Counted from the first letter of the stretch, positions 23,430 through 57,960 are shown. The stretch: 64,000 nucleotides of DNA from Eubacteriales bacterium (GCA_030533385.1 JAUNJG010000007.1:638-64637), one strand, 5' to 3'. Numbers and translations are program-made. The notes: generated by a model not told the origin, from the letters alone.

Positions 23430-26249
23430 TCAGTGGTAGATGCCGATGTAGCTGGCAGGATGAAAAAATGCTTCTGTATTTTTGTGGTAAATGGATTTCC
23501 CTGTGTCGAAGGAATCAGGGATTTCTCCGAGGAAGAGGCCGCCGGAAAAGGGGATTTCCTGATAAAATACGGTGTCGGGGTGCTGTTTTCCGTTGTCTCC
23601 CAACACATAGCGAATCCGCTCCATATCTCCGTCAAACCATTTTTCCAACAGGGGGATGATCTGTTCTGAGAAAATGCGGCTCAGGGAGAGAAAGGGGTCT
23701 TTTTCCGGAGAACTGAGGAAAAATCCTTCTCCGAGCTGGTAATCCGGTCCCAGAAAATAGGAAATTCTCTGGTTCATTGTAATCATCATCCGCTCTAAAT
23801 GGATGCCTTCTACCTGTATGCCCTTTAGGATTGCCGGATTGGGGGCGATGGAGCGAATGAAGAAATCATGAGCGACTGCTCCGGTTATCGTGTCCTCGCT
23901 CACGTCGCAGTCGCAGGTGGCAACGAGGTAGAGGTTGGAAGGCAGAGTAAAAGTCTCTCCGGAGCAGGAGAGGGTTACGGCGGTTTCACTTCCCATCCCC
24001 TCCCTCCGGTTGTCCCTTAACAAGACGGCGGTTTCTCCAAACAGATGCGCCCAGTTCATGTTGACTTCTTCCATCATAACCACATAGCGTCCGTCGGCAC
24101 AGTGGTTGGCAAAAGTTTTGAAGATGCCGCTTTGTACGCCAAAGGACTGCCGGGATTCAATCCAGCCGGCATAGCCGTCCCCGTCTCTGTCCGGGTAGGA
24201 AATATGGAGAATCCTTCCCTCTTCCACATATTCTTTATAATGTTCCAAAACGTCGGACCTTGGCTCAATCCGCATCATGGAAAGTTCCTTCCCCTCGATG
24301 ATTCCCACCGCCGTCAGAATGGCCTCATGGTATTTTCCTGTTTTGACCGGGCCTTTGATCAGAGTGTTTTTCGGATAGAGACGAAAGCCCTGCTCTCTGC
24401 GGTCGGGGTGGGTGGATGCTGTCGAAGAAGGGGACGGTGAGCTTCCGGTACGGTGGTAAGATGGCGTCCCCTCCCCGAATGTCGCAGGGCGCTGTTCCGA
24501 AAGGTTTTCAGGAGGCAGCGGAGATTCTGGATTGGAAGGGAGGAGAGGCGGCGGTGCGGAAAGAGATTCCCCGTCCGGCTCCGTCTTTGTCGTCTCTTCT
24601 TTTTTTGTGGGGGCATAGCCTTGTAATACTCTTGTAATGTAGTCGGAAGTGGGGGAACTTCCGCCCTGTTTATAGATGATCTGAGGGCCGGGAACCTGGA
24701 CGGCTGCCCGGTAGGTCAGCTTGGAGCCAAGAGCGGCTGCAAGGGGGTCTTCCTGCATCGTCTCATCGGGAGCGGGGTAGTCGTTTTGGCAGATATCTGT
24801 ATAATAAGAAGCCAGAATCTGGGAGGCGGTGGACATCATGTCGATGATATCTTCTTCTTTCATGGTCTTAAAGTCCTCGTAGAGGTAGAGAGCGGAGGCT
24901 TTTAGCTTCTGGCTGTCCTCAATCAGGTCAAAACCTTCGGTGGCTCTGTTTTCCACCCGGAAGGGAGCCGCAGTCATGAGAGGAAGCTTCCCGCATTTTT
25001 CCTGAATATTTAACATGGCCTCCTCGTCTGCGCAGTAAGGCAGGTTGAGGGCAATCTCGATATTGACGGCGTCCTTGTCGGGAATGGTAAGAAAGGACAG
25101 TCCGGCATGGGTATGGGCATAATCTTCTATGGAGAGGACGTCGCAGAAGAGATAGGAAACCCTTCCGTCTTCCTCTGTGTGCCAGTGCGCTTTTCTTGCG
25201 TAAGTAAAATTGGGATATTCTCCGATGAGGGCGTCCGCCAGCCGGTGAAAAACAGCCGAGCAGTCTTCGCCGTCGGCCCGGAGGGCGAGAGACTGCTCGG
25301 AGGTGTCTTCGGGATCATAGACGGTTCCCCCCTGCCTTGTGAGAAAATCTGCCAGACGGACAAAACCGTTAGAATGATTCAGCTCCACATAGGAGGCATC
25401 CACCAGGTGAGCGTATTCATGTTCCACGAAATCAAGGAGGGTGGAGAGGGTCATGTAGCCGTAGATAGAGTAGATATATGCGGTATCATCTATATTTTCG
25501 TCTTCCGGTCGCTCCCTGTCGCCGCCAAATTCGCCGGGATAGCTGATGCGGTAATATTTGTAAATATCCCGCAGATACCGGAGGCGGTGTCCCGGCTCGT
25601 CAGCATTGCAAATCCGGGTGATGGTGTTGACGTTGACGTCCTGCCCGAATACCTTTTGTGCCCGGGTCTGCACCTCATACTGCATGAGAAGGATGTCGTC
25701 GGCGCTGATGCCCGGATTTTGGTAATATTTTTCATAGAGGAGAACGGCGGCCGCAATCCAGACGGAATCCTCCTGGGTATAACGAATCTGAAGGCTGCGC
25801 TCCACGTCGTTCATGAAGGCATAGTAGCGCTGTTCCAGATCGGGCCAGAGGGCGCCGATGGCCTCGCCAAGTTCGGGGTGAAGTTTCCATTCCAGACTCT
25901 CTGTCTCCTTTGCGCCTGTATGTTTGCCCCAGAAAAAGAGAAACCACCAGTATTCCTCGCCTTGAAAATCCACTTCGGCGGGAATGTCGTTGGCGTTTGC
26001 CAGAAGTTTTCCCATGTCGTTGGCGTCCGCCAGGAGTGCCGCCTCCGTTGCATGGCCGCAAAAGGAAAGTTGGAGGAGGGTGGCGGCGTGGTTATAGGAG
26101 GCGTAGACCTGTTTTAGGAGGGAAAGCTGTGGCTCAGTGAGCTGTCCGGATTCTAAGAGGCTTTTCCACTGTTCTGTGGTGTAGCGGCTCTTAGACTGAT
26201 AGTCTGCCTCATACTCATAGTCTCGTTGTCTTTGTTTGTCGGTAATCAT
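23430..26249 (-). CDS. McrB-like AAA+ (AAA_5/GTPase-type) protein with degenerate nucleotide-binding motifs and a large unassigned N-terminal region
   Basis: 939 aa. The C-terminal region of about 330 aa is collinear with McrB-family NTPase domains. GPVKTGKY occupies the GPPGxGKT position (nt 24330-24353). VVMMEEVNMN...LFGE occupies the IIDEINRAN..FGE position (nt 24054-24083). LYLVATCDCD occupies the IIGTMNTAD position, and AHDFFIRSI the RRRFxF position. An IIPLLEKWF tail follows. A Pro/Ser/Thr-rich linker lies at about nt 24380-24620, and I cannot assign the N-terminal ~550 aa. Confidence 0.65.
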   Translation of the reverse strand: MITDKQRQRDYEYEADYQSKSRYTTEQWKSLLESGQLTEPQLSLLKQVYASYNHAATLLQLSFCGHATEAALLADANDMGKLLANANDIPAEVDFQGEEYWWFLFFWGKHTGAKETESLEWKLHPELGEAIGALWPDLEQRYYAFMNDVERSLQIRYTQEDSVWIAAAVLLYEKYYQNPGISADDILLMQYEVQTRAQKVFGQDVNVNTITRICNADEPGHRLRYLRDIYKYYRISYPGEFGGDRERPEDENIDDTAYIYSIYGYMTLSTLLDFVEHEYAHLVDASYVELNHSNGFVRLADFLTRQGGTVYDPEDTSEQSLALRADGEDCSAVFHRLADALIGEYPNFTYARKAHWHTEEDGRVSYLFCDVLSIEDYAHTHAGLSFLTIPDKDAVNIEIALNLPYCADEEAMLNIQEKCGKLPLMTAAPFRVENRATEGFDLIEDSQKLKASALYLYEDFKTMKEEDIIDMMSTASQILASYYTDICQNDYPAPDETMQEDPLAAALGSKLTYRAAVQVPGPQIIYKQGGSSPTSDYITRVLQGYAPTKKEETTKTEPDGESLSAPPPLLPSNPESPLPPENLSEQRPATFGEGTPSYHRTGSSPSPSSTASTHPDRREQGFRLYPKNTLIKGPVKTGKYHEAILTAVGIIEGKELSMMRIEPRSDVLEHYKEYVEEGRILHISYPDRDGDGYAGWIESRQSFGVQSGIFKTFANHCADGRYVVMMEEVNMNWAHLFGETAVLLRDNRREGMGSETAVTLSCSGETFTLPSNLYLVATCDCDVSEDTITGAVAHDFFIRSIAPNPAILKGIQVEGIHLERMMITMNQRISYFLGPDYQLGEGFFLSSPEKDPFLSLSRIFSEQIIPLLEKWFDGDMERIRYVLGDNGKQHPDTVFYQEIPFSGGLFLGEIPDSFDTGKSIYHKNTEAFFHPASYIGIYH

Positions 26250-34697: not shown

Positions 34698-36782
34698 ATG
34701 GAAAAGAGTAAAGGTACAAGATGGAAAAGACCGGGCAGAGTCTGCCTTGCACTGATTATGACTCTTTTGATCTGTGTGAGCAGCGTGAGCGTGCAGGCCG
34801 GCAGTCCGGGAAAAGTCCGCCCTGCCGACGTGTCTTCCTGCATGGAGATTTCCGATCTGATTGCCGACACCTGGGAAGAAGGTTATTTCAGCACCATGAC
34901 GGTGGACGCAGATTCCGGGGAGGTGACGGTGGATGGCGGGAAAGCCGGAAGCGTGCGGGACGTGCTGCAAAAGGGCAGAGTTTTGTCTCTCAGAAAACAG
35001 GGAATCAAAAAGGAAAACCGGGGCGCTGTTACCGTCACGAAAAAACAGGTGAGAGCTTATGCGGACGCCCTGTCAAAGGACGGCGTCTATGAGATAAAGA
35101 AGGGGCTGGGAGGAGACTACGAAATCACGGCACCCTACCAGACCAGGCGGATTATCGTGGAGGATATCGTCAGAGGGGATGTCTATGGAGCCAGTCGGAT
35201 CATTTATAATGAGGAGCTGGGAGAGACGATTCTGCAATATGAGACCCAGAAGGAGGCGGAGGAGGCCTGCGAAAATTTTCAGGAAATCTACGGGGAGGCC
35301 GACTGTTATCCGGATATGGTGTGCCGGGTGGATGACGTTCCCTTCTCGATGCCGGAGGAGATCATTCTCGAAAACACAGGGGTATATTCCTGGGGGAATG
35401 ACTATATGGGAATGAGTGAGCTGAAAACCCGGGCGGCGGGTGCAGCTCCCGTGATGGTAGCCATTTTGGATACGGGGATAGACCGGTCGAATTTTCTCTT
35501 TGCTTCCAGAAACATATCTTCCAAAAGCTATAATTTTGTGGAGGGCAATAAAAATGTGATGGACAACCACGGCCACGGTACCCATGTGGCGGGGATTATC
35601 GCCGACGCCACGCCGGACAACGTCCAGATTATGATGCTGAAAATATCAAATACCAGCGGATATTCGTCTCTGCTCACCATCAAGACCGCCTTGCAGTACG
35701 CTCTGAATAAAAGGGTGGACGTAGTCAACATGAGCCTGGGGTTCGTGGGGGTGAATGCGTCGAAATGCACCTATTTGGACAGTCTCATCAACCGGGCTTA
35801 CCGGGAGGGGGTTGCCATCTGTACTGCGGCGGGTAACAGCGGCGTGGACGTGAATTACTGCTATCCAGCCTGCAATAAAAAGACGCTGGCGATCTCTGCC
35901 ATAGACTCGGATGAAGGGTTCGCCTACTACTCAAACCGGGGGGCTTTGATTGATTTTTGTGCACCGGGAAGTCAGGTCATCAGCGCCGCTCCCGGCAACG
36001 GGCTGATCGGGATGTCCGGCACTTCGATGTCCGCCCCTCATGTGACGGCGGCGGTGGCCTACATAAAAATGATAAAGAAAGATATGTCGGTCAGCGGAAT
36101 CTATAATGAGCTGAAGGCGCGGTGCAGAGATCTGGGCGCACCGGGCCGGGATATTTATTATGGATGGGGCTGTCCGGTGATGACCGATCTGTTCGATACC
36201 GGGGTCATCTATAAAGACAGCGTGGTGAAGGCCGATGACGGCACTCCGGTATTAAAATCTGTAAAAAACGTGAATGACGGCGTAAAAATCTCCTGGACGA
36301 AGGTGAAAAAGGCGAAGAAATACTATGTGTATCGAAGGCGGGGGAGCGGTCCTTTTCAAAAGGTCAAAACCCTGTCCGGACGTACGACAAGCTGGCTGGA
36401 TGGAAAAGTATCCCAGAATAAAAAATATACTTACATGATAAGAGCTGTCAAAAAAAACAAGGCCGGCGACAGGAGCAATGAAAAAGGGATTGTATATTTA
36501 AAAAAAGTAGGGAAGCTTGTGTTGAAAAGCCGGAAAAAGAAGTCGGTGGACATTAGCTGGTCAAAAAGAAAAGGTGCGACAGACTATGAGATTTTTTTCT
36601 CCGGAAAAAAGAAGATGAACCGGGGAAGACTGCTCTCCGTGTCCCGAAAGGCAAACAGAGTCCGCCTGCGGGGATTAAAGAGAAATAAAACCTACTATTT
36701 CAGAATCCGGGTTGTGAAGAAGGTCGGGGAGACCAGTTTTTATTCTTCATGGTCGGAGATGAAAAAAGTAAAAATAAAGTGA
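34698..36782 (+). CDS. Secreted S8 family serine peptidase with an N-terminal propeptide-like region and two very basic FN3-like C-terminal repeats
   Basis: A signal peptide (GRVCLALIMTLLICVSSVSVQA) is present. The triad contexts are VAILDTGID, HGHGTHVAGIIA and SGTSMSAPHVTAAVA. The C-terminal repeats are VKISWTKVKKAKKYYVYRR... and VDISWSKRKGATDYEIFFS...KTYYFRIRV. Confidence 0.85.
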   Translation: MEKSKGTRWKRPGRVCLALIMTLLICVSSVSVQAGSPGKVRPADVSSCMEISDLIADTWEEGYFSTMTVDADSGEVTVDGGKAGSVRDVLQKGRVLSLRKQGIKKENRGAVTVTKKQVRAYADALSKDGVYEIKKGLGGDYEITAPYQTRRIIVEDIVRGDVYGASRIIYNEELGETILQYETQKEAEEACENFQEIYGEADCYPDMVCRVDDVPFSMPEEIILENTGVYSWGNDYMGMSELKTRAAGAAPVMVAILDTGIDRSNFLFASRNISSKSYNFVEGNKNVMDNHGHGTHVAGIIADATPDNVQIMMLKISNTSGYSSLLTIKTALQYALNKRVDVVNMSLGFVGVNASKCTYLDSLINRAYREGVAICTAAGNSGVDVNYCYPACNKKTLAISAIDSDEGFAYYSNRGALIDFCAPGSQVISAAPGNGLIGMSGTSMSAPHVTAAVAYIKMIKKDMSVSGIYNELKARCRDLGAPGRDIYYGWGCPVMTDLFDTGVIYKDSVVKADDGTPVLKSVKNVNDGVKISWTKVKKAKKYYVYRRRGSGPFQKVKTLSGRTTSWLDGKVSQNKKYTYMIRAVKKNKAGDRSNEKGIVYLKKVGKLVLKSRKKKSVDISWSKRKGATDYEIFFSGKKKMNRGRLLSVSRKANRVRLRGLKRNKTYYFRIRVVKKVGETSFYSSWSEMKKVKIK

Positions 36783-36855
36783 CCTTTGTGATGATGCAGT
36801 CATGTCTGATAACAGACGGCCTCCGGCGCAGGCTGGGCTGCAAGAGAGGGCGCTT

Positions 36856-39800
36856 ATGACCAGGCGCAGGCCAACAAAGAGTATAGACGATTGGTGGGAA
36901 CATAAGTTGAAAGAAAAAGTAGATTTCACAGAAGAGATAAATGAAACAGAAACTCCGGTTCTTGGGATTTCCGTCACGAACCTGGAAATTACCGTGGAGG
37001 AAGGCAAAGTATACAAAGGCTCCTTTGTCGTGGAGAGCCGCGGTAAAGTGCCGGTGCGGGGAATCGTTCGCTCTACCAATGACAAGGTGGGGCTGGAAAC
37101 AGAAGAGTTTGAGGGCGTCCGGACGGAGATCTCCTATTATTTTAAAGGGAAGCTGGCGACGGCGGGCAATGAATTTGAGGGGGATTTTCTTTTGATTACG
37201 GACGGCGGAGAATACAACATCCCCTACCGTATTCTTGTCGTGCCTACCTCGGTGGACACCTCTGTCGGGGAGATCTCCAACATGGAGGACTTTACAAAAC
37301 TATATTATGAAAATAGGCAGGAAGCGATGGAGCTGTTTTTCCTGCCTAATTTTGCCGATGTGTTTCTGCGGAACCTGCCGGAGCAAAAGGAGTTGTATCA
37401 CGGTCTGATGAAGAGCCGCTCCCGAAGCATGATTTTGGAGGAGTTTCTCTGTGCGGCAGGGTACAAGGAGCCGACCTGCCTGACGGTGGAGAAGGAGCAG
37501 ATTACCCTGGACGCAGGAAAGGAGCAGGAAAAGCTTGTCATTTCCCTGACCCAGAAAGGGTACGTTGAGGGAAAAATCAAGGCGGAAAAAGGGCAGGTTA
37601 CCCTTTCTGTCGGCGCTTTTACCAGCGAAGATTTCGCCGAAGGGCGTCTGGAACTGATTCTGGAGAAGAACCACAATTACACGATGGGAAGCGATGTCAT
37701 TCGCATCGTCACCATGCGCCAGGAGATAGCGGTTCGCGTGGAATGGTGGGGGACGCTGCCGGAGTACACGAAGGAGAGAGAGAAAAAGAGCGGGCTGAAA
37801 AAGCAGAGAGCGGAGCTGATGCACAACTATCTTTCCTTCCGCACGGGGAGCATTGGCTTTGAAGATTTTGCCGACGAGGCGGTTCGGGGATTGGAAGAGC
37901 TGTCCCGCCGGAGCGGAGAAGTGGAGTGGAAGCTTTATCTGTTGCAGATTTTTATGATGGAAGAGCGGCAGGAAGAGGCGAAGGAATTGTTTGAGGCCAT
38001 GGAGGCGAAGGAAGGGGAGCAGGCCTTCTCTCCGCTGCTGCACAATTATTTTCTCTATCTGAAAGCGCTGTTGCTGAGAACGCCGGAGAGCATTTCTGCG
38101 GCCGTCCTTTCTATTCGGGAGTTTTACGAGGCGTCCGAGCGCAAGGCAGAGGCACTCTGGATGCTCATTTATCTGGACAGAGAGTATGTGTACAACAAAC
38201 GCCTTCGGTATGATACGATAAAACAGCTGTTTCAGCAGGGAGAAAACAGTAGTCTTCTATACTTTGAAGCCTGTGATCTGCTCAATGACAATCCGGATTA
38301 TATGGAGGAACTTGGCTCCTTTGAAATCAGCGTGTTCCGGTGGGGCGTGCGCTACGGCTATGTCTCCATGTCCCTGGCCTATCAGTTTGCAAGGCTTGCG
38401 TTGAAAGCAAAATATTTTAGTAAGGCGGTGTATCACATTGCTGAAAAACTGTATCAGGTGGAACCGGACGAAAGATTTTTGCAAGTGATTTGTTCCCTTC
38501 TCATCAAGGGAAATCGACATGGGAGAGAATATCATGGATATTTTCGTCAGGCGGTGGAGGCCAATCTGAAAATCATCGGCCTGAACGAATTTTTTATCCG
38601 AAGCATGGATTTTTCGGAATACGAGGTGATTCCACATCGGGTACTCATCTATTTCACTTACAGCAACAGCCTTGATTCCACGGAAAAGGCGTACCTGTAC
38701 TCGAACGTGCTGGAAAATAAAACGTTTTATGACGAAGTGTACGGCGCTTACTATGCGAAGATGCTGCCTTTTGTGGAAGAACAGCTGTTAAAAGGCCGGA
38801 TGAACGAACATCTTGCCTATCTTTACAGTTATTTCCAGAAAGAAATTTTGGAAAAGCCGGCCAACACGAAGGCGGTCTGTGACATCTTATTTTACCAGAA
38901 GCTGACCTGTCTGAACAAAAACATGATTGGGGTTTATGTGGCAAGGCCGGAGACCGGGGAGGAAACCTACTATCCCCTCGCCGGCGGCATCTGCTATGTG
39001 GAGATTCCAAACGGCAGAACCATCCTCTATTTTGTGGACAGTCGGGAGCAGCGGTATGTCACCGGAATCGACTGCGAAAAAGAGCCGTTCCTTTTGACGG
39101 AACAGTTTCCGAAAGGCTGGCTGCAAAAAAATATGGGAAATAAAAAAATCCTTCTCGCCCTTTCCTACAAGGTGGATGGCGACATCCGGGAGAGTGACCT
39201 GCCGGTGCTTCAAAAGGTCGCCTTTCAGGACGGATATCAGCCGTGGATACGGATGAGGGCGGCGGAAAAACTGCTCATTTACTACGAGGGGCATCAGAGA
39301 AAGGAAGAGCTGGCAATCTGGCTGGAGAGAATGGATTATTCCAATGTGTCCGCCGGATTTAGAAAGCGGCTGATGGATTTTTACATGGAAGTCGGCATGA
39401 TGGAAGAAGCTTACTTTGGCATTGAACTTTACGGCTGTGGCATCATGGGTGCGGCCAAGCGGTTGAAGCTGGCTTCCTTCGGCGTCGTCCACAGCGGGGG
39501 AAATCTGGATGAGACTACCCTCTCCCTTGCCTACTCCGCTTTTGTGAGCAAAAAATATAACAGAGATACCCTCTCTTATCTGATGAGACATTTTGAGGGA
39601 GAGACGGAGGATTTTTTGCTTATCTGGGAGCGAAGTCGCAAATTTGGGCTTGACACCACGGATTTTGAAAAGAAGATGTTGAGGCAGAGCATGTTTACGG
39701 GAAATGACACCGACGGTCTGTTCGCCGTCCTGGAATCACTCTGCGGTGCGGAGCAGGAGAGGGAGATGACCGGGGAGTATCTGCGCTATCTGTCCGAGAG

Positions 39801-40404
39801 GGAGAGACAGGGACTGGTGGAACTGCCCGCTTCTGTCCACGTCATGATCGGCGAGGAAATTCTGGCGGGAAGAATCAGGGACCAGGAGGCCCAGCTTCAT
39901 TTCCTCTGGTATTTTGCGGATAAGGAGCCGTGGAAGGCGAAGATTCGAGAGACCGCCGTGATGCTCATCCATCGTTTTTTGAGAGAAGAACTGTACTTGC
40001 CGGTATTTTATGCGTACCGGGATTGGGTGAGCTTTCCGGCGCAGTATGTGGAGAAAACCTTTTTGACCTACCGGGGAAGCCGGGGAAGCAATGTGGTGCT
40101 TTATTATCAGATTGAGGGAGAAGAAGAGCGCACGAGAAAGTGCAGGCTGGAAGAGTTTTTGCCGGGCATCTACGTTTGTTCCATGCATTTTTATCAAAAT
40201 GACCATGTGAATTATCGTCTGGAAGAAAATGAAGCTCTCGTGGAAGACGAGAGTCGTCTTTCCTTTGAGACATTTGAATATGAAGGAGAGGAGAGCCGGT
40301 TCTTTGCCCTGAATCATTTTGGAGGGGAAGACTGGAATCAAGAAGAATTTGAGTATTATCTAAAGAAAGCCTACTTTGCAGAGCATGTCATGGGTATGCT
40401 GTGA
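36856..40404 (+). CDS. Large (about 1180 aa) protein of unknown function with an N-terminal beta-rich module followed by an extended region that looks helical from its composition
   Basis: The ORF is uninterrupted. The ATG at 36856 is preceded by AGAGAGGG, and the longest frame starts at 36802. Residues ~40-150 look like a beta-sandwich (LEITVEEGKVYKGSFVVESRG...GDFLLITDGGEYNIPYRILVVP). The rest looks helical-repeat-like by composition. I see no TM segment, signal peptide or catalytic motif. Confidence 0.6.
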   Translation: MTRRRPTKSIDDWWEHKLKEKVDFTEEINETETPVLGISVTNLEITVEEGKVYKGSFVVESRGKVPVRGIVRSTNDKVGLETEEFEGVRTEISYYFKGKLATAGNEFEGDFLLITDGGEYNIPYRILVVPTSVDTSVGEISNMEDFTKLYYENRQEAMELFFLPNFADVFLRNLPEQKELYHGLMKSRSRSMILEEFLCAAGYKEPTCLTVEKEQITLDAGKEQEKLVISLTQKGYVEGKIKAEKGQVTLSVGAFTSEDFAEGRLELILEKNHNYTMGSDVIRIVTMRQEIAVRVEWWGTLPEYTKEREKKSGLKKQRAELMHNYLSFRTGSIGFEDFADEAVRGLEELSRRSGEVEWKLYLLQIFMMEERQEEAKELFEAMEAKEGEQAFSPLLHNYFLYLKALLLRTPESISAAVLSIREFYEASERKAEALWMLIYLDREYVYNKRLRYDTIKQLFQQGENSSLLYFEACDLLNDNPDYMEELGSFEISVFRWGVRYGYVSMSLAYQFARLALKAKYFSKAVYHIAEKLYQVEPDERFLQVICSLLIKGNRHGREYHGYFRQAVEANLKIIGLNEFFIRSMDFSEYEVIPHRVLIYFTYSNSLDSTEKAYLYSNVLENKTFYDEVYGAYYAKMLPFVEEQLLKGRMNEHLAYLYSYFQKEILEKPANTKAVCDILFYQKLTCLNKNMIGVYVARPETGEETYYPLAGGICYVEIPNGRTILYFVDSREQRYVTGIDCEKEPFLLTEQFPKGWLQKNMGNKKILLALSYKVDGDIRESDLPVLQKVAFQDGYQPWIRMRAAEKLLIYYEGHQRKEELAIWLERMDYSNVSAGFRKRLMDFYMEVGMMEEAYFGIELYGCGIMGAAKRLKLASFGVVHSGGNLDETTLSLAYSAFVSKKYNRDTLSYLMRHFEGETEDFLLIWERSRKFGLDTTDFEKKMLRQSMFTGNDTDGLFAVLESLCGAEQEREMTGEYLRYLSERERQGLVELPASVHVMIGEEILAGRIRDQEAQLHFLWYFADKEPWKAKIRETAVMLIHRFLREELYLPVFYAYRDWVSFPAQYVEKTFLTYRGSRGSNVVLYYQIEGEEERTRKCRLEEFLPGIYVCSMHFYQNDHVNYRLEENEALVEDESRLSFETFEYEGEESRFFALNHFGGEDWNQEEFEYYLKKAYFAEHVMGML

Positions 40405-40454
40405 GGAGCCGGACGCAGACATTGACAACAGGAAAGAGCCTTTTAGGGGGATTT

Positions 40455-41558
40455 ATGGGAGAACTAGAAACTAGGAAATATATCGGCATTGATATTGGAA
40501 AAGATTCTGTGCAGCTGAGCATTTACGAAGAATCCGGGGCGGAGATGAGGGAGGAGAGTTTTCCGGTTCCGCCGGATGAGAGAGAGGATTGCATTGCTTT
40601 TGCCATGAACATGGCAGAAAAGTACATGGAATGTAACGGGCTGGCATGGACGGATTTTCAGGATGTGAATTTTACGATGGAGGACACCTCCGAGGCGTGC
40701 CGCAAGCAGCTTGGTTCCCTCCTGAAAGAGGAGGTAAAAGAGCGTTTCGGACTTCGGGTCATGACCCGGTTCAGAGCTTTCGTGGAGTATGTTTTTCACC
40801 AGGAAAGAGCAGTGTGGGACAGAAGCACCCTCCTTCTTGACTACAGGGAGAACACCCTTCGATATATTCTGGCAGACCAGATTCGTCCATCCAGGCAAAA
40901 GGCATACCGGGCGGTGATAAAAGAGCTGGATCTGACCCAGTATGAGATTTATGCGGAGGATGAAAATAAAGACTATGCCTTCAGCAAAATGATGAAACAG
41001 TTTCTCGTAAAAAATCCGGCCCACATCATTTTCCTGACCGGAAAAGGATTTGAGGGGAACTGGATGAAGAAGACACTGACCTATCTTTGCGCCGGGCGGA
41101 GGGTCTTTCTCGGACAAAATCTTTACGCCAACGGCGCCTGTCTCAGAGGAACCGGGGTGATTCCTCTGATGAAGGAAGGGATGCTCTTGATGCAGGGGCC
41201 GGAGATGGTGTATCATACCATCGGCGTCGTGAGTCAGGAGGCCGGGAAGGCGAAATATGTGCCGATTACATCCATCGGCCGGGAGTGGTATAACACGAGG
41301 GGTACGATGGATATCATTTTAGATAAGAGCCAGAAGGTAGAGTTCTTTTATCACAACACGAAGGAAAATGAGATGGAATGTTCTTCCTGTGAGATAAAAG
41401 AGCTTCCGGCCAGGCCGCCGAAAACGACGAGAATCCGCATTGAGGTGCAGTTTACCTCGGAGACAGAGGGTGTGATTTTACTGAAGGATTTGGGGTTTGG
41501 GACGATGTTTCCGGCGACGGGAAAGGTGACGGTGTTCCCCTTTTCCCTGATTTCATAG
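40455..41558 (+). CDS. Divergent Hsp70/actin-fold (ASKHA) protein with degenerate phosphate-binding loops and a short beta-rich C-terminal domain
   Basis: The landmark order matches Hsp70: YIGIDIGKDS, LLLDYRENT, IIFLTGKGFEGNW, GQNLYANGACL, then IRIEVQFTSETEGVILLKDLG. The start is ambiguous. The ATG at 40455 has AGGGGGA 4 nt upstream. A GTG at 40401 forms a GTGA overlap with the upstream stop. Confidence 0.5.
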   Translation: MGELETRKYIGIDIGKDSVQLSIYEESGAEMREESFPVPPDEREDCIAFAMNMAEKYMECNGLAWTDFQDVNFTMEDTSEACRKQLGSLLKEEVKERFGLRVMTRFRAFVEYVFHQERAVWDRSTLLLDYRENTLRYILADQIRPSRQKAYRAVIKELDLTQYEIYAEDENKDYAFSKMMKQFLVKNPAHIIFLTGKGFEGNWMKKTLTYLCAGRRVFLGQNLYANGACLRGTGVIPLMKEGMLLMQGPEMVYHTIGVVSQEAGKAKYVPITSIGREWYNTRGTMDIILDKSQKVEFFYHNTKENEMECSSCEIKELPARPPKTTRIRIEVQFTSETEGVILLKDLGFGTMFPATGKVTVFPFSLIS

Positions 41559-41571
41559 CGGGAGGAAGATT

Positions 41572-42453
41572 ATGCGAGAAACAATCATATGCATCGGCAG
41601 AACGGCAGAAAAGCCGTACTGTTTTCCGGAGACGGGAATCAGCGTCTCCTCCTATGAGGAAATATGCTATTATTTTAGCAATTACATGATTTGTTATCTT
41701 TACACTCTGCCGGAGGAGGAGTTTTTGTACTTTATCAGGGAGGAGCTTGGCCTTGACAAACTGTACCGGCAGCTTGTAAAGCTGACAGATGCGGACAGGG
41801 ATCAGATGAAATATTTTTCTGCCCTGTTTCGCGAAGGAAGCTATTTTTCCGAAGATGAGATTCGCCGGATACTGGACGAGTACCGGAATCTGAAGAACCT
41901 TCCCTATTCTTTGCAGAGCAAGAGGCTGGGGGACGTGTACCTTCGGGCAGGAAGAGCCTCCATGGCGATTCACTGTTATGGGGAAGCTCTGAAGCAGGGG
42001 GAGCTGGAAGGGAAGGAGGCCGGGGCGGTCTGCCATAACCGGGGAATCGCTCTCGCCCGTCTCTTTCGCTTTCACGACGCAAAAATACAGTTTGTAAAAG
42101 CGTACCAGCATGGAGGAGAGGAAGAATCGCTTTTTTGCTATTATTGCATGATTGCCCTCACGGAAGGATTGGAGAAGGCGCGGCGGGAGCTGGAAGGGTT
42201 TCAGGTGTCGGAGCTGTCGCAGGAGGCTTTTGAAAGCCGTTTTGCGGAGGCGAACGAAGCCTTCGATTACAGTGAGGAGGCAGTGAGAGAAGAAAAGCTG
42301 CGCTTTCTCATGGAAAACGGAAAAGAGGAGGAAGGCGGACTGCTGTACAAAAAGACAGTGAGGGATTTTCAAAAAGCATTTCGGAGAGAGCTGGATGTGG
42401 ATGAAAATCTGCTGACGGTCAATGTACCTGTTCCCAGGAGCGACGCTCCCTGA
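41572..42453 (+). CDS. TPR-like repeat protein of unknown function
   Basis: SD GGGAGGAAG lies 4 nt before the ATG. TPR-like helices are present (LGDVYLRAGRASMAIHCYGEALKQ...VCHNRGIALARLFRFHDAKIQFVKAYQ). The start is 13 nt after the upstream stop. Confidence 0.55.
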   Translation: MRETIICIGRTAEKPYCFPETGISVSSYEEICYYFSNYMICYLYTLPEEEFLYFIREELGLDKLYRQLVKLTDADRDQMKYFSALFREGSYFSEDEIRRILDEYRNLKNLPYSLQSKRLGDVYLRAGRASMAIHCYGEALKQGELEGKEAGAVCHNRGIALARLFRFHDAKIQFVKAYQHGGEEESLFCYYCMIALTEGLEKARRELEGFQVSELSQEAFESRFAEANEAFDYSEEAVREEKLRFLMENGKEEEGGLLYKKTVRDFQKAFRRELDVDENLLTVNVPVPRSDAP

Positions 42454-42462
42454 TTTTTCAGA

Positions 42463-42504
42463 GGACATTCCCGGGAGATCCGGGCGGAGGAGAGTCCCTT
42501 TTTT
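42463..42504 (+). terminator. Weak terminator-like hairpin plus T6 between the TPR gene and valS
   Basis: An inner stem CCCGG (42470-42474) / CCGGG (42480-42484) and an outer stem GGAC (42463-42466) / GTCC (42494-42497) are followed by TTTTTT (42499-42504). Confidence 0.35.
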
Positions 42505-42546
42505 ATGAAAAGATATCACTTAACAATTGCAGGAGGAAATAATTTC

Positions 42547-48954: not shown

Positions 48955-49382
48955 AGACGAAAAAGAACGAGATGGACCTGATTTTTTGGAACTACCCGGA
49001 AAATGAGAGGATTGGAAGAACGGCGGCAGCAGTGTTTGCAGCCATTCTGAATCCGACGATGGAGGAGATTTCCGACTTTAAGACCGCAGTGTCCGAGGCG
49101 ATCACCAATGCGATTATTCACGCCTATCCGGGAAAAGAAGGAAAAATATTTATGCACCTGGAAAGGGAGGGCAGGGAAGTAACCGTACATATCCGGGATG
49201 AGGGGGTCGGCATCGCCGATATTCAAAAATCAATGGAGCCGATGTACACCACCTTGGAAGAGGAGGAGCGCTCCGGCATGGGATTTACTTTTATGGAAGC
49301 TTTCAGCGACGAGATGAGGGTGGAGAGTGAGCCGGGCAGGGGGACGAGCGTCTATCTGATGAAAAAAATGGGAGGGAGATAG
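48951..49382 (+). CDS. spoIIAB: Anti-sigma-F factor (serine protein kinase)
   Basis: An ATGA overlap joins it to spoIIAA. The GHKL motifs are EAITNAIIHAY (N-box), DEGVGI (G1) and SGMGFTFM (G2). Confidence 0.9.
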   Translation: MKTKKNEMDLIFWNYPENERIGRTAAAVFAAILNPTMEEISDFKTAVSEAITNAIIHAYPGKEGKIFMHLEREGREVTVHIRDEGVGIADIQKSMEPMYTTLEEEERSGMGFTFMEAFSDEMRVESEPGRGTSVYLMKKMGGR

Positions 49383-50092
49383 TGGAGCATACCTGTGAAT
49401 TGATTCGACAGGCAAAGGAAGGAAATCAGAAAGCACGATCCCGCCTCGTGGAAGAAAATGTGGGATTGATTTGGAGTGTGGTGCGACGTTTTCAGGGGAG
49501 AGGTTATGAGAAGGAAGACCTGTTCCAGATAGGGAGCATCGGGCTGCTTAAATGCATCGACAACTTTGATTTGAGTCGGGAAGTAAAGTTTTCCACCTAT
49601 GCGGTTCCCCTGATATTGGGGGAAATCAAGCGCTTTTTACGGGATGACGGCATGGTGAAAGTCAGCCGCAGTTTGAAGGAACTCAATTATAAAATAAAAA
49701 GAGAGATAGAGTTTTATGAAAAAGAAAATAACAGGGAACCGACGCTCCGGGAGCTGTGCAGGGCGCTGGGTGCGGAGGAGGAAGACGTTTTGATGGCGCT
49801 GGAGGCGGGACAGGAAATGCTCTCCTTACATCAGGTCATTTATCAGAAGGAGGGGGATGAAATCTATCTGGAAGACAAAATTGAAAGGCAAAAAGATGAC
49901 ATTGAAGAAACGGTAGACAAAATGTATATTGAGGAACTGCTGATGGGACTGGAAGAAAAAGAAAGGCGGCTCATACAGATGCGCTATTTTCAAAACAAGA
50001 CCCAGGCGGAGGCGGCGAAGGTGCTGGGGGTGTCTCAGGTACAAATTTCCCGCATGGAGAAAAAAGTATTGAAAAAACTGCGAGGTGAATAA
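49382..50092 (+). CDS. sigF: Sporulation sigma factor F
   Basis: The GTG start overlaps the spoIIAB TAG by 1 nt. Regions 2-4 are present (EDLFQIGSIGLLKCIDNFD, FSTYAVPLILGEIKRFLRD, QAEAAKVLGVSQVQISRMEKKVLKKLR). Confidence 0.9.
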   Translation: MEHTCELIRQAKEGNQKARSRLVEENVGLIWSVVRRFQGRGYEKEDLFQIGSIGLLKCIDNFDLSREVKFSTYAVPLILGEIKRFLRDDGMVKVSRSLKELNYKIKREIEFYEKENNREPTLRELCRALGAEEEDVLMALEAGQEMLSLHQVIYQKEGDEIYLEDKIERQKDDIEETVDKMYIEELLMGLEEKERRLIQMRYFQNKTQAEAAKVLGVSQVQISRMEKKVLKKLRGE

Positions 50093-51883: not shown

Positions 51884-52016
51884 ATAAACAAAGTTAGAAG
51901 CGAGGGGAGATTCTTTCTCCCCTATTTCGTTTATCCGATGTGTCGTAAAATCCTTTGCTTTCGCTATGGGGAGTATCAAAGTAAAAAAGTACAGGAAAAA
52001 TTGGGGGGGGGTACGG

Positions 52017-54587
52017 ATGAAAACAAGGAGAAGGCTATTATTATTTTTTTGCATATTAGGAGTGGTCCTCGGAACTGCCGCAGTTCCCGCCAGCGCAAAA
52101 AACAGAAGGACGGTGCGGGTGGGATGTCCCTCCCAGAAAGGGTTGACCTTCCGGACGGAGGACGGGAAGTACGAAGGGTACACCATAGATTATCTGGAAG
52201 AAATCAGCAAATACACGGACTGGACATGTGAGTATGTGGAGGTGGAGGGAGATTTGAACACCCAGATCCTCACTCTCATGGAAATGCTTCAGAAGGGGGA
52301 GATTGACCTGCTGGGTGCCATGAATTACAGTGAGGCGCTGGCGGAGGAGTTTTTTTATCCAAGTTATAATTACGGAACCTCCTACACCGCCCTGACGGTC
52401 AGCAAAAGTTCCGTAAAGTGGATGGAGGAGGACTATAAGAACTGGAACGGCATACGGATTGCCTCCTACCCGGGAATGGAAAAGAGAATGCAGCTTTTGG
52501 ATGCATTTGCCCGGGTCAACGGATTTACCTACGAGGTGGTGGAGTGCAGCGATGCCAAAGAGATGTTTCAGAGTGTGTACGACGGGGAGGCGGACGCCAT
52601 TTTGCAGGTGGACATCTCCATGGCGGAAGGGTTTCGCAGCATTGCCCGGTTCAATCCTCAGAACTTTTACTTTGCCGTCAGCAAAGAGAAGCCGGAGCTG
52701 TTTAAGGAGTTGAATCAGGGACTTTACAGCCTGGTGCAGTCCTATCCTGACTTGCAGACAGAGCTTTATGAAAAATATTTTTCTCACAAGGGAGACTTTT
52801 ATCTGACGGAGGAGAGCAAGAAGTACATCGAGAGTCTGGGGACGTTAAAGGTACTGTTTTTCGAGGGAAACAAACCGATGCAGGACGGGAAAGGCGGAAA
52901 GGCAGTGGGGCTTGCGGCCGGTCTGTTTGAGAAGCTGGCGAGGGACCTCGGCCTTCAATACGAGGAAGTGATAGCCAAAAACTATGTGGAAGGACGGGAA
53001 CTCATCAGGGAAGGCAAGATAGATTTGGTGGCGGCGGTGCCTCCCGGCGCCCGGCTTCAAGAGGAGGTCAGGCTGTCCATGACCCATTCTTATTTTGAGA
53101 GCTACGGCATTGCCGTGAGCAACGGAGAGATAGACGATGAAGATATCGGGATGCTAAACCTCTCTGCCAATGTGGAGAAGGACTTAAAGAGAATGGCGAG
53201 GCACAAGGGCAGCCGGGTTTCGATGGATGCCAACTGTATCAGCTTTTACATAAGAAAGAAAGGGTTGTATGAGTCCTTGTCTTTTGATTGGGGAACGACC
53301 ATGAGCATCCGGTATTCCATAGGGATTGCGAAAGGCGGGGATAACAGACTGAGAAATGTCATAAACAGCTACATTAACAGTATGCCCAGAGACAGTATCC
53401 AGCAGATGGTTTATGAAAATTCCTATGAGCCTGTGGAATACTCTTTCTCTGAGTTGATTTATGTTTACTGGGAGCGGATTTTGATCGTCGTCATAGGCAT
53501 TCTCGTTTCGGTTTCCCTCTATCTGGGTTACAGGAAACGGCGGGAGTTAAGGCAGAAGGCTCTGGAGAGCGATAAAATTTATCAGTTTTCCAGAATGACC
53601 AACGAATGTCTGTTTGAGTATGATTTCAGGCGGGATCAGTTAAATGTGCAAAACAGCCAGCTGTTTTTCCCTGACGAAAATATTTTAAATAACTTTCTGA
53701 AAGCGTTTGAAAGCTCTTTTGAAAAATTTGACAAAATAGAACAAAAAGAGATTGGCCGTACCCTGCATGAGATGCTGTCGGGAAGACAGGAGCAAAGGGA
53801 TGTCTGGTGCCGGAAAGAAGATGGAGACTGCTGGTATCGGATACAGATTCGCTATATCGGAAAAGAGGGGGAGAGTGCCATCGGAAGGATCTCCGATATC
53901 AGCCAGACGATGATGGAACAAAATGCGCTGAAAAGGCGGGCGGAGAGCGATTCTCTCACGGGGATTCACAATCGGGCGGCGGCAGAACGATATATCGATG
54001 ATTTCCTTCGTGTGAAGGGAAACGAGGGCATCATGATTTTGTTTGATATTGATAATTTCAAGACGGTAAATGATACTCTGGGACATCTGGCGGGCGACCA
54101 GCTGATTCAGGAGTTTGCCGAAAGACTGAAAAAAAGCTTTCGCCACACCGATTTCATGGCAAGGCTGGGCGGCGACGAATTTGTCGTGTTCCTGACGAAG
54201 GCCATCGAGGAGGAGAAGCTGGCGGCAAAGCTCCAGGCGGTCATTGATGATATGAATCAGAAGGTGTTTGCCGCATATCCGTCCTGCGCCTTATCTGCCA
54301 GCATTGGCGCCGCCTACTCAGGGGAGCAGAGTAACGATTATAAATCTCTGTACCGCTTTGCGGACAACGCCATGTATGTGGCAAAGTTTGGAGGGAAAAA
54401 TGACTTTTTCATTGCAGAAGACGAGGTCTGCATGAAGAGGGGATGTGACAATTGCAGGCCGGTGTGCAGACGCCGGGAGTATCTGCTCGGAAAGGGTGTG
54501 TTGCGCCGGGATGAAAAGAATCCTGGAAAGTTTATCGTCGTGGACCCTCATAACAATGGGGGAAGGAGAGGCGAATCATTACAGTAG
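52017..54587 (+). CDS. Diguanylate cyclase with two extracytoplasmic solute-binding (SBP_bac_3-like) domains, one TM segment and an intact GGDEF domain
   Basis: A signal/anchor (LLLFFCILGVVLGTAAVPASA) is followed by two PBP-type repeats, a TM segment (ILIVVIGILVSVSLYLGY) and the GGDEF domain (DSLTGIHNR...DIDNFKTVNDTLGH..GD...RLGGDEFVVF). Confidence 0.85.
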   Translation: MKTRRRLLLFFCILGVVLGTAAVPASAKNRRTVRVGCPSQKGLTFRTEDGKYEGYTIDYLEEISKYTDWTCEYVEVEGDLNTQILTLMEMLQKGEIDLLGAMNYSEALAEEFFYPSYNYGTSYTALTVSKSSVKWMEEDYKNWNGIRIASYPGMEKRMQLLDAFARVNGFTYEVVECSDAKEMFQSVYDGEADAILQVDISMAEGFRSIARFNPQNFYFAVSKEKPELFKELNQGLYSLVQSYPDLQTELYEKYFSHKGDFYLTEESKKYIESLGTLKVLFFEGNKPMQDGKGGKAVGLAAGLFEKLARDLGLQYEEVIAKNYVEGRELIREGKIDLVAAVPPGARLQEEVRLSMTHSYFESYGIAVSNGEIDDEDIGMLNLSANVEKDLKRMARHKGSRVSMDANCISFYIRKKGLYESLSFDWGTTMSIRYSIGIAKGGDNRLRNVINSYINSMPRDSIQQMVYENSYEPVEYSFSELIYVYWERILIVVIGILVSVSLYLGYRKRRELRQKALESDKIYQFSRMTNECLFEYDFRRDQLNVQNSQLFFPDENILNNFLKAFESSFEKFDKIEQKEIGRTLHEMLSGRQEQRDVWCRKEDGDCWYRIQIRYIGKEGESAIGRISDISQTMMEQNALKRRAESDSLTGIHNRAAAERYIDDFLRVKGNEGIMILFDIDNFKTVNDTLGHLAGDQLIQEFAERLKKSFRHTDFMARLGGDEFVVFLTKAIEEEKLAAKLQAVIDDMNQKVFAAYPSCALSASIGAAYSGEQSNDYKSLYRFADNAMYVAKFGGKNDFFIAEDEVCMKRGCDNCRPVCRRREYLLGKGVLRRDEKNPGKFIVVDPHNNGGRRGESLQ

Positions 54588-54913
54588 AAGGCAGACGGAA
54601 GTGATAGAAAAAAGACGAGGGGCGTTCCTGATAACGATGGGGAGCGCCCTGTCCCTTGTCCGGGTGTAAATGCGCTTTGTGCTTCGGCAGTTATGGACAA
54701 AATTTGTATTTTGTGGTAGTCTAAAATTCATAATATTTTTAGATAAACAGAACATTTTTGTGATGATTTACATATTTCAGGTTGGTTTATTGTTAGTTTT
54801 TTCATCGGTTTTATCCGAACAGAGCCGGCGTATTTGGTCGGAAAACATACGAAGCGACTGCAAAGGTGCGTGAGGGGAGGTATCGTTGCAGGGTTTAGAA
54901 GAGGGTCTGTAGT

Positions 54914-57187: not shown

Positions 57188-57471
57188 AGGTTCAGACTTC
57201 CGTCTTGGCCAGAGGAATCCTGTTGGCGGGAGAGGCTGGCGCAAGGCGGAAGAATGAGCGCTTCCCTCATGAGAAAAGAGGATGCAAGGCGGGGAAGTCC
57301 CCAAAATTTCATTGCGGATATTTTACATAAATTTTAATAAAAAATCCTGAATTTTACATAATAATACAAAAAAATCTCGTCAGTATAAAAAATCTATATA
57401 ATATAAGTAAAAAATGACAAAAAAATACTATAATTTTATATATTATTGATAAAAAAGATGAAAAAAAAGAG

Positions 57472-57500
57472 TTGAGATTCTCTGCAAAAATTTATATAAT
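57472..57500 (+). promoter_or_regulatory. Near-consensus sigma-A promoter far upstream of the third c-di-GMP gene
   Basis: TTGAGA (57472-57477), exactly 17-nt spacer, TATAAT (57495-57500), within an extremely AT-rich tract. Confidence 0.5.
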
Positions 57501-57960
57501 AAATGAGTATAATGCCGCAGACAAATTCGGTAGGATGCGCCTGAGGTTTTTTCTTTTCTGTCAACGAAAACGGGGACGAGTGTTTCACGGTACCCGCTTT
57601 TGTCTTTTGGATGAAATCATATCTATATGTTTATTATTTAATTCCTTCACTTCGTCATGGGGAATGTCAGCAAAATATAATGTATCGGTATACCGGAGAG
57701 AAAAAAGCAGAAGGCTGTATCAAGAATGTGGTGTGATATATCAATATATGAGAAGGCTGCAATTGAAGGGCGCCCCGGCGTTCTTGCGGCGGCGCACCGG
57801 CCGACGGAGACTGGCATCACAGGAAGCTGTGCGCCTGTCATCCGCCTAAGAATGGTTTCTCAGCCGGAGACCGCATGCTTGCTGGGATGAATCGGAGCGT
57901 CTCACCATGAATGAGAGTGGAAGTCTTCTCCGACGAGATAAAATCAGAGGTTTTTTGAGT

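Follow-up and report, generated by a model that had tools for sequence, protein, structure and literature searches.

A Lachnospiraceae operon encoding a minimal, highly diverged Hsp70 homologue, its TPR partner protein and a putative DUF5717 scaffold

Some atypical Hsp70s, such as Ssz1 of the ribosome-associated complex and Hsp110, act as structural subunits rather than as cycling chaperones, and in eukaryotes there are co-chaperones whose tetratricopeptide repeat (TPR) domains are dedicated to Hsp70-type partners; we know of no TPR co-chaperones of bacterial DnaK. Among bacterial systems, the CnuD and CnuCD proteins of type III CoCoNuT combine an Hsp70-like nucleotide-binding domain (NBD) and substrate-binding domain (SBD), with degenerate ATPase motifs, with HEAT repeats, which are either fused to them or encoded by a neighbouring gene (PMC11090510). 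Here we describe positions 34698 to 42453 of a 64,000-nucleotide stretch of DNA from Eubacteriales bacterium (GCA_030533385.1 JAUNJG010000007.1:638-64637; the whole stretch is referred to as the window), where a subtilase gene is followed by genes for a DUF5717 protein, a DUF5716 protein and a TPR protein. The last three genes form a conserved operon, and DUF5716 is a stripped-down, highly diverged homologue of Hsp70. The features of the region are as follows.

34698 to 36782, plus strand: S8 subtilase (Pfam Peptidase_S8, 6e-40, and two fn3 domains)
36907 to 40404, plus strand: DUF5717 putative scaffold, 1165 amino acids (aa) (Pfam DUF5717_N and DUF5717; AlphaFold2 model)
40455 to 41558, plus strand: DUF5716 diverged Hsp70 homologue, 367 aa (Pfam DUF5716_C; AlphaFold2, Foldseek)
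41572 to 42453, plus strand: TPR partner protein, 293 aa (TPR_2 and TPR_1 below cut-off; family profile)
42437 to 42504, plus strand: weak elements resembling terminators, between the TPR gene and valS (terminator scan; sequence inspection)

To place the genes in context, one genome per GTDB species was scanned with a DUF5716 alignment, which gave 114 confirmed loci, 80 of which were kept. Carriers among the kept loci include Anaerobutyricum, 'Eubacterium', Clostridium sp. CAG:590, Herbinix, Mobilitalea, Anaerolentibacter and many other Lachnospiraceae, with Anaerobutyricum hallii DSM 3353 (L013) and Anaerolentibacter hominis CSJ-1 (L079) as cultured examples. Wherever the contig reaches, the DUF5717, DUF5716 and TPR genes are adjacent and co-directional across the 80 loci, over identities that fall from 74% to about 25%, and the TPR gene adjoins DUF5716 in 77 of them; the median intergenic gaps are 18, 18.5 and 14 nt. 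Pairwise distances among the three proteins correlate with one another (rho 0.91-0.95) and with those of ValS (rho about 0.87), and the trio diverges 3-4 times faster than ValS. The original prediction, which was made from the sequence alone, had presented all four genes as one block. For the three cytoplasmic genes this was borne out, since they are syntenic in 80 related genomes as far as the contigs extend, with or without the subtilase upstream; an arrangement of the trio by chance is ruled out because it is conserved across these genomes, and the pattern supports the view that the three form one functional unit.

For the subtilase the same claim failed. It was detected upstream of the trio in 23 loci, every one of them in an Anaerobutyricum-like clade, and there it is in some cases separated from the trio by 2-3 kb that contain minus-strand genes and a promoter; it was not found upstream in L005, L031 or L032, nor in any of 48 distant loci (L033-L080). 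Being clade-limited, at times distant and absent from every distant locus, the subtilase is a clade-specific neighbour outside the conserved module, and the earlier interpretation is only partly supported because this protein must leave the unit. It may nevertheless share a transcript with the trio in the window. That adjacent genes here have unrelated functions and lie together by chance does therefore describe the subtilase; extended to the trio, the idea is hardly credible in view of synteny over 80 genomes down to about 25% identity, gaps of 14-18 nt, gene fusions and correlated rates. What had been said of the protein itself was accurate: as well as matching Peptidase_S8 it has a hydrophobic N-terminus (Kyte-Doolittle 2.27 at residues 15-33) in keeping with a signal peptide, and its FN3 pair is Lys/Arg-rich, the C-terminal 184 aa being 30% Lys plus Arg. 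It does not reach the level of a type VII secretion system (T7SS) mycosin, scoring 114 bits against an NCBIfam equivalog cut-off of 278.75, and the T7SS EccA model gave 13 bits against a cut-off of 466.65.

The evidence that DUF5716 is related to Hsp70 comes in the first place from its predicted structure. The protein belongs to Pfam DUF5716_C (PF18980; E 3e-78, 263 bits against a cut-off of 34.7), and its AlphaFold2 model (pLDDT 92.4, pTM 0.89) has an NBD of about 240 aa, composed of two βββαβαβα lobes of ASKHA type without lobe IB and with lobe IIB reduced. A short hydrophobic linker then leads into an eight-stranded sandwich at residues 244-364 that resembles the β-subdomain of the SBD (SBDβ). 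The α-helical lid (SBDα) is not present in the model, where the chain stops 3 residues past the final β-strand. When the model was compared with the PDB by Foldseek, the top 50 matches listed were all two-domain chains of the Hsp70 family of at least 491 aa, and none was an isolated NBD; the families listed are DnaK, BiP, Hsc70, mortalin, Ssb, Ssz1 and Hsp110, with E values down to 1.8e-14 and a probability of 1.0. Chains of Ssz1 and Hsp110 among the matches are 6sr6, 5mb9, 7x3k, 2qxl and 3d2e. The best query TM-scores (TMq), 0.44-0.46, were obtained for the domain-docked DnaK states 7kru and 7krv, and undocked forms gave about 0.35. It can be seen that both features of the superfamily fold, a two-lobed ASKHA NBD and a β-sandwich SBD directly after it, are found in DUF5716.

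Comparisons at the level of sequence gave mixed results. The profile of the DUF5716 family found DnaK as its best match (E 0.014), and a profile made from 47 diverse representatives of the long form of the protein (DUF5716 of at least 400 aa) matched DnaK at 8.5e-5 and 2.2e-4, all matches below E 0.5 being DnaK chains. HMMER aligned the SBDβ7-β8 motif LPxRPxKTTRxxI..F......G.......DxGFG to DnaK, the profile segment matched to the DnaK SBDβ reading 'LeglpeRpnkttRleiklefldektvvitvkDlGFGe'; this stretch is insignificant when taken alone. Alignment by hhalign to a hand-entered DnaK sequence, on which the PDB searches do not depend, gave probabilities of 4-17%, and at that low probability it paired 'GIDLG' with 'GIDLG' and 'IPTvl...W.xGeeA' with 'TPSiiay..tlvGqpA'. 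Pfam HSP70 was not matched by the window protein at E values up to 1 or by a long form at E values up to 0.1. Likewise, when each of the three proteins was compared as a single sequence with those of the PDB, no match fell below E 0.2, and NCBIfam gave nothing meaningful for the trio. On its modelled fold above all, we take DUF5716 to be a much reduced and highly diverged homologue of Hsp70.

The residues by which Hsp70s bind and hydrolyse nucleotide are largely degenerate in this family, as counted over 46 DUF5716 sequences on an alignment to DnaK that is of low confidence. In phosphate-2, 'DLGGG' has become D-[YF]-x-x-x with loss of the glycines, and 'NEPTAAA' has become T-R-x-R-A-F, with R, H or Q at the position aligned with Glu171. 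In phosphate-1, G11 is invariant, the second Gly is found in 23 of the 46 sequences and the TT pair is variable, while the lobe IB segment, in which DnaK has Lys70, is deleted in the form found in the window's clade. On this low-confidence alignment the full set of Hsp70 catalytic and nucleotide-binding motifs (GxDxGTT, Lys70, Glu171 and DxGGGT) is thus not present in DUF5716, which is probably ATPase-dead. No conserved HP[DE]/J-domain motif was seen in alignments of DUF5717, DUF5716, the TPR protein or c3 (a fourth gene product described below), and no operon protein gave a DnaJ or GrpE match in Pfam. Having lost the helical lid, the glycine-rich phosphate-2 loop and, together with lobe IB, the catalytic Lys, the protein probably acts as a clamp.

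The TPR protein begins with a conserved domain of about 100 residues that matches no family, marked by the motif ILC...Y.F...SYEELCYY and by invariant E29, E30 and C32. Two to three repeats follow at residues of about 107-186, in which Y136, H155 and N156 are invariant. Pfam TPR_2 and TPR_1 fall just under cut-off in the window copy and were found in 16 and 8, respectively, of 26 members. Searched against the PDB, the family profile matched designed consensus TPRs first, and the best natural matches were TPRs of Hsp70/Hsp90 co-chaperones (SPAG1, Tah1, Tom70, CHIP, STI1, RPAP3 and UNC-45; E 1e-6 to 1e-3). The five-residue carboxylate clamp was judged by eye to be incomplete: K117 and N156 are kept, the first Asn is replaced by Asp and the Lys/Arg pair of the third repeat is absent. 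DUF5716, for its part, has no acidic EEVD-like tail, its C-terminus being a β-strand ending 'FPFSLIS'.

A direct connection between the two proteins is indicated by fusions of DUF5716 to the TPR protein, which account for six independent cluster representatives (50% identity) among the top 150 of the DUF5716 profile search. These fusions (P0350, P0394, P0409, P0422, P0437 and P0444) are about 700-727 aa long and keep the order of the genes in the order of their domains; in P0350, hhalign placed residues 13-286 of the TPR profile on residues 433-707 with a probability of 100% (E 2.7e-54). Of the indications available from sequence, fusion would be the strongest functional link of DUF5716 to the TPR protein. 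Another DUF5716 representative, P0360 (691 aa), has no TPR fusion and carries an acidic low-complexity tail of about 270 aa with DSDEE repeats.

The product of the second gene matches Pfam DUF5717_N (PF18984; E 9e-211, 702.5 bits) and DUF5717 (PF18983; E 5e-45, 154.5 bits), both with cut-offs of 25. Its AlphaFold2 model (pLDDT 84.8) was predicted to have the following domains, with residues numbered from a start at 36856.

Residues 36-140: immunoglobulin-like (Ig) domain of ASH/MSP type, with a helical linker after it
Residues 209-297: second Ig domain
Residues 306-678: TPR-like solenoid
Residues 680-744: β-domain
Residues 753-1065: second solenoid
Residues 1066-1141: C-terminal β-sandwich

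With Foldseek, the N-terminal Ig pair matched arrays of ASH/MSP type, namely hydin-like central-pair proteins, the CEP192 SPD-2 domain and 2qsv, and the solenoids matched the TPR/HAT scaffolds Ctr9, Naa15, Ski3, IFT-A, Syf1 and anaphase-promoting complex (APC) subunits. Neither the model nor Foldseek gave any enzyme or NTPase fold for DUF5717, a profile search of PDB sequences had no match to it, and a Walker A motif is missing from all of the four proteins. From its modelled fold, DUF5717 would be a large, non-enzymatic scaffold. The original prediction had described the three cytoplasmic products as a large helical scaffold, a pseudo-Hsp70 and a TPR adaptor, and each of these labels is upheld, the first by the AlphaFold2 model and Foldseek, the second by those methods together with the profile searches, and the third by TPR_2/TPR_1 and the profile matches. 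Its statement that only the subtilase could be named was too strong, because the second and third products belong to catalogued Pfam DUF families.

In distant loci a further gene, c3, lies directly after the TPR gene and encodes a protein of about 392 aa (for example L040:11755-12933, plus strand). This protein has no Pfam family and consists of a coiled coil, a hairpin of two transmembrane (TM) segments at residues of about 174-228 and a second coiled coil, with both coils predicted to be cytoplasmic. Of 43 loci with long-form DUF5716, 42 have c3 after the TPR gene, and none of the 29 with the short form does. c3 was not found in the 64-kb window either by tblastn or by hidden Markov model searches of six-frame open reading frames (ORFs). 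The window's clade lost c3 along with the lobe IB segment, a correlation that amounts to one phylogenetic event.

The explanation that we favour, and to which we would assign an even chance, is that the operon, with three genes here and four in most lineages, encodes the parts of a single cytoplasmic complex in which DUF5716 serves as a pseudo-chaperone clamp. In such a complex the 1165-aa DUF5717 would provide a non-enzymatic scaffold of ASH-type Ig domains and TPR-like solenoids. DUF5716, which keeps the ASKHA core and the β-sandwich, would work as a nucleotide-independent or very slow peptide clamp and not as a cycling chaperone, and the TPR protein, being one polypeptide with it in some genomes, would bind it directly and connect it with the scaffold or a client. 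In most lineages the 2-TM hairpin of c3 would anchor the complex to the membrane on its cytoplasmic side, and the whole would hold, assemble or dock a client. We infer that DUF5717 takes part physically in the complex, that ATPase activity has been lost and that the role is one of holdase, assembly or docking, which would be compatible with the chaperone-like or assembly/sensor module suggested in the original prediction. A more elaborate form of the same account, possible although unlikely, is that gut Lachnospiraceae possess a self-contained, chaperone-like machine, bacterial in origin, in which an ATPase-dead minimal Hsp70, permanently coupled to its own TPR adaptor, sits on a scaffold docked to a 2-TM receptor. 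If true, bacteria would have their own counterpart to Hsp70-TPR adaptor networks, which have so far been regarded as eukaryotic, and it would imply a lineage-specific client or membrane-targeting step.

Several observations weigh against the pseudo-chaperone clamp. D13 is kept in 42 of the 46 DUF5716 sequences, the position aligned with D194 of DnaK is acidic in 41 of them, and there is no variation in the loop T195-G196-x-G198-F199 or the segment GRRVFxGQNLYxxGA; since these features persist, a residual pocket or interface is presumably under selection, and DUF5716 may still bind nucleotide. What would tie DUF5717 to the other two proteins is synteny and correlated rates only, the parallel loss of c3 and lobe IB is a single event, and the matches of the TPR protein to co-chaperones may reflect mere closeness to the TPR consensus. 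The window copy may also work differently from the ancestral four-gene form, because it lacks both the membrane partner and the conserved promoter described below. Finally, the DUF5716 and DUF5717 families are mentioned, by name or Pfam accession, in no paper of the literature searched, the single text match being unrelated.

The same retained residues would suit DUF5716 as an active, unconventional ASKHA ATPase, actin-like or a non-canonical Hsp70, that powers remodelling or polymerisation on DUF5717. With G11, D13, the acidic D194-aligned position, the T-G-x-G-F loop and the GRRVFxGQNLYxxGA segment all in place, a functional pocket seems to be preserved, and the model is nearest to domain-docked, ATP-like DnaK. 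However, the glycine-rich phosphate-2 loop and the segment aligned with the catalytic Glu are lost, the whole of lobe IB with Lys70 is gone from the window's form, the operon has no J-domain protein or recognisable exchange factor, and Foldseek is led by Hsp70s, with no MreB, ParM or FtsA among the 50 matches listed. We therefore consider an active ATPase doubtful.

How the operon is inherited bears on another explanation, that it is a defence or conflict system in which the TPR scaffold senses, the Hsp70-like and TPR proteins relay and c3 is a membrane-disrupting effector that has decayed with its system in the window's clade. Bacterial immune proteins commonly use large TPR arrays as sensors, and the rapid evolution of the trio relative to ValS would suit such a role. 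Degenerate Hsp70-like NBD/SBD modules with helical repeats are known from CoCoNuT type III restriction systems (PMC11090510). c3 has weak matches to LeoBC (E 7.5e-4) and to the SLATT_1 2-TM effectors (E 0.022); these are confined to TM and coiled-coil segments and were rejected as evidence for a defence system. In addition, PADLOC matched none of the three proteins, no McrB/McrC, HEPN, nuclease, protease or P-loop NTPase was found among the scanned proteins, and no plasmid copies of the trio were found.

Five 'Bacteriophage sp.' records do match the trio. The two that were inspected, MT835719.1 (L081) and MT835486.1 (L082), are 'UNVERIFIED' virome scaffolds that bear DUF5717, DUF5716, TPR and c3 genes, and MT835486 additionally encodes valS (81% identity). 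Because of the four-gene module, and of valS in MT835486, both were read as fragments of bacterial chromosomes, and phage-borne copies were rejected for these two scaffolds, leaving no genuine phage copy among those inspected. The operon also keeps the same housekeeping position, with valS downstream throughout the close clade as well as in several distant ones, and it diverges in step with ValS. At an E value of 1e-3 or better the DUF5716 profile found 1,798 clusters (50% identity), 675 of them at 1e-30 or better, and single clusters of close homologues have metagenomic members numbering in the thousands, which would be expected of a core gene in abundant gut species. A defence role is thus quite improbable. 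Synteny, divergence that follows ValS, the position by valS and the lack of plasmid or true phage copies fit a vertically inherited, lineage-specific core operon typical of Lachnospiraceae, and not a mobile or defence element.

The operon could alternatively be a sporulation or cell-morphogenesis module, in which a membrane-tethered scaffold organises a lineage-specific envelope or spore structure, much as rapidly evolving organisers of the coat or divisome do. In the window the gene order is dnaG, rpoD, trmK, trmO (minus strand), dus, the subtilase and trio, valS, folC and a gene for a TPR/zinc-ribbon protein, after which a sigma-70-family protein of 236 aa is encoded at 49382-50092, sigF-like by position, followed by spoVAA and spoVAB (to 51286, plus strand); related loci have two ORFs of the size of spoIIAA and spoIIAB (about 110-150 aa) before a similar sigma gene, a likeness based on size only. 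The presence of the sigF-like gene, spoVAA and spoVAB indicates that the organism carries sporulation genes. Their closeness to the operon, the lineage-specific and fast-evolving character of its proteins and the membrane-anchored coiled-coil partner of the ancestral form would all agree with a part in sporulation, and in Bacillus subtilis the coat morphogenesis genes spoVID-ysxE lie directly upstream of valS. Nevertheless, the nearby spo genes are separate operons beyond valS, folC and a TPR gene, and no LysM, SpoIVA-like or coat-protein domains appeared in the scans.

Promoter signals also speak against it. Within 250 nt upstream of DUF5717 the sequence TGnTATAAT, which has the form of an extended -10 element of a sigma-A-type promoter, occurs in 36 of 63 loci, compared with 1.26 expected, and it is seen as well in loci of the close clade whose subtilase stands further off. 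Downstream of it, one large subclade has paired boxes, ATTATA-N15-AAACATCAAG (L046:5948-6031, L049:5921-6054 and 17 other loci), that may be an operator; of the 22 occurrences of the 10-mer AAACATCAAG in 1.36 Mb of loci, 19 are directly upstream of DUF5717. No sigma-factor consensus was recognisable in this box pair, and a sporulation promoter was rejected after inspection by eye, in which the upstream boxes fitted no sigma-E, K, F, G, H, D or sigma-54 consensus. No conserved secondary structure was seen in the 5' leaders compared, those of 13 distant loci. On balance, a sporulation or morphogenesis module is improbable. Neither TGnTATAAT nor the box pair was found in the window or its nearest relatives; because these conserved signals are missing there, the window trio is probably transcribed from further upstream, possibly via the subtilase gene.

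The gene calls made originally were confirmed, with corrections. All four plus-strand ORFs are present where they had been placed, a purine-rich ribosome-binding site (RBS) stands in front of every start, and with the starts then chosen the gaps do measure 73, 50 and 13 nt. The second ORF, described as a helical protein of about 1180 aa, is real, although 36856 probably lies 17 codons ahead of its true start. We would place the start at TTG 36907, which has the RBS GGTGGGA 7 nt upstream and an N-terminus ('LKEKV...') that fits the family pattern 'MKxK[IV]E'; DUF5717 homologues are about 1165 aa long, and residues 1-30 of the AlphaFold2 model are disordered. This start would widen the gap after the subtilase gene to about 124 nt. 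The alternative GTG start at 40401 for the third gene, which would create a GTGA overlap, is unsupported because DUF5716 homologues are 367 aa long. A cytoplasmic location for the last three proteins, each of which is net acidic, was confirmed, no Kyte-Doolittle segment exceeding 1.6. An ORF of 355 aa on the minus strand (window 41452-42519) lies opposite the TPR gene and the last part of DUF5716, and is almost certainly spurious because the plus-strand genes are conserved.

The absence of a hairpin with a T-run between the genes was likewise confirmed, the three intergenic gaps being clean and all plus-strand matches of the scan lying within coding sequence. The terminator that had been placed at 42463-42504, before valS, held up less well: an element is there, but it is weak, and as a terminator it was rejected since its folding is indistinguishable from that of shuffled sequence (z = -0.43). 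The scan flags instead a hairpin with a 5-bp stem (42437-42449), overlapping the stop codon of the TPR gene and followed by TTTTT; a second element, in the interval before valS, consists of a CCCGG...CCGGG hairpin and a distal run of T6. The probable start of valS is ATG 42547 rather than 42505, which puts it about 93 nt after the TPR gene (42454-42546). No T-box or other Rfam element precedes valS in the window, and Rfam over 33-47 kb at E values up to 1 gave nothing except a chance match to a long non-coding RNA, whereas in a distant relative, at L078:12982-13247, a bona fide T-box (104 bits) stands in front of valS. In the window's clade valS may be read through from the trio.

Elsewhere in the window, three consecutive genes for large proteins of cyclic-di-GMP signalling lie at 51966-60189 (plus strand) and encode a protein with SBP_bac_3 and GGDEF domains and then two with dCache, GGDEF and EAL domains. 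At 23430-26249 (minus strand) an ORF of 939 aa without a Pfam match at E values up to 1e-4 adjoins a CNNM/CorC transporter gene.

With respect to known systems, the window proteins are clear members of the Pfam families DUF5716 and DUF5717, entries whose names carry no function. The Hsp70 ancestry of the former, the architecture of the scaffold, the obligatory TPR partner with its fusions and the fourth, membrane gene are all unreported in the literature searched. Three genes that are 'hypothetical' in many gut genomes, those of the abundant human-gut butyrate producer Anaerobutyricum included, can now be annotated as one module.

CnuD is the closest described analogue of DUF5716, as far as the two can be compared by description. 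Unlike CoCoNuT, however, the operon has no McrB-like GTPase, McrC/DUF2357, HEPN nuclease, cold-shock domains or defence-island context, and no component that defines CoCoNuT or McrBC was found in Pfam, NCBIfam or PADLOC scans of the four genes and their neighbours. RNA binding of the CnuD type was considered and is disfavoured because all three proteins are net acidic. Nor does the operon belong with STAND/NLR-like (Avs-type) systems, as Walker A, a PADLOC match and an NTPase fold are all missing.

The TPR protein resembles the eukaryotic TPR co-chaperones (HOP/STI1, CHIP, Tah1, Tom70 and others) in having a short domain, made of some three repeats, that is devoted to a partner of the Hsp70 type. 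It differs from them in keeping, as judged by eye, two of the five clamp positions, in having a partner without EEVD and in its new N-terminal domain; its likeness to the EEVD co-chaperones is one of resemblance and not of membership. A dedicated and sometimes fused TPR partner is in any case unusual for bacteria. Ssz1 and Hsp110 offer the precedent of an atypical Hsp70 that is a structural subunit and does not cycle, as would be the role of DUF5716, but Ssz1 is eukaryotic, has a full-size ATP-binding NBD and works with the J-protein zuotin, and nothing found here ties the operon to the ribosome.

Compared with the canonical Hsp70s (DnaK-DnaJ-GrpE, HscA and HscC), DUF5716 has the same order of ASKHA NBD, hydrophobic linker and eight-stranded SBDβ, and it retains a phosphate-1 of the form G-[ILV]-D-[LI]. 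In its long forms 'IPTxL...W.xGxxA' corresponds to 'TPSxxA...LVGxxA', and the SBDβ7-β8 motif remains recognisable. On the other hand it is 367-420 aa long rather than about 640, its lid is missing, its lobe IIB is reduced and its catalytic positions are degenerate, and it is always paired with DUF5717 and the TPR protein in an operon without a J-protein or GrpE. DUF5716 is thus a natural minimal Hsp70, with a core NBD and an SBDβ, no lid and, here, no lobe IB, and it shows which parts of Hsp70 can go while the pairing of NBD with SBD stays selected.

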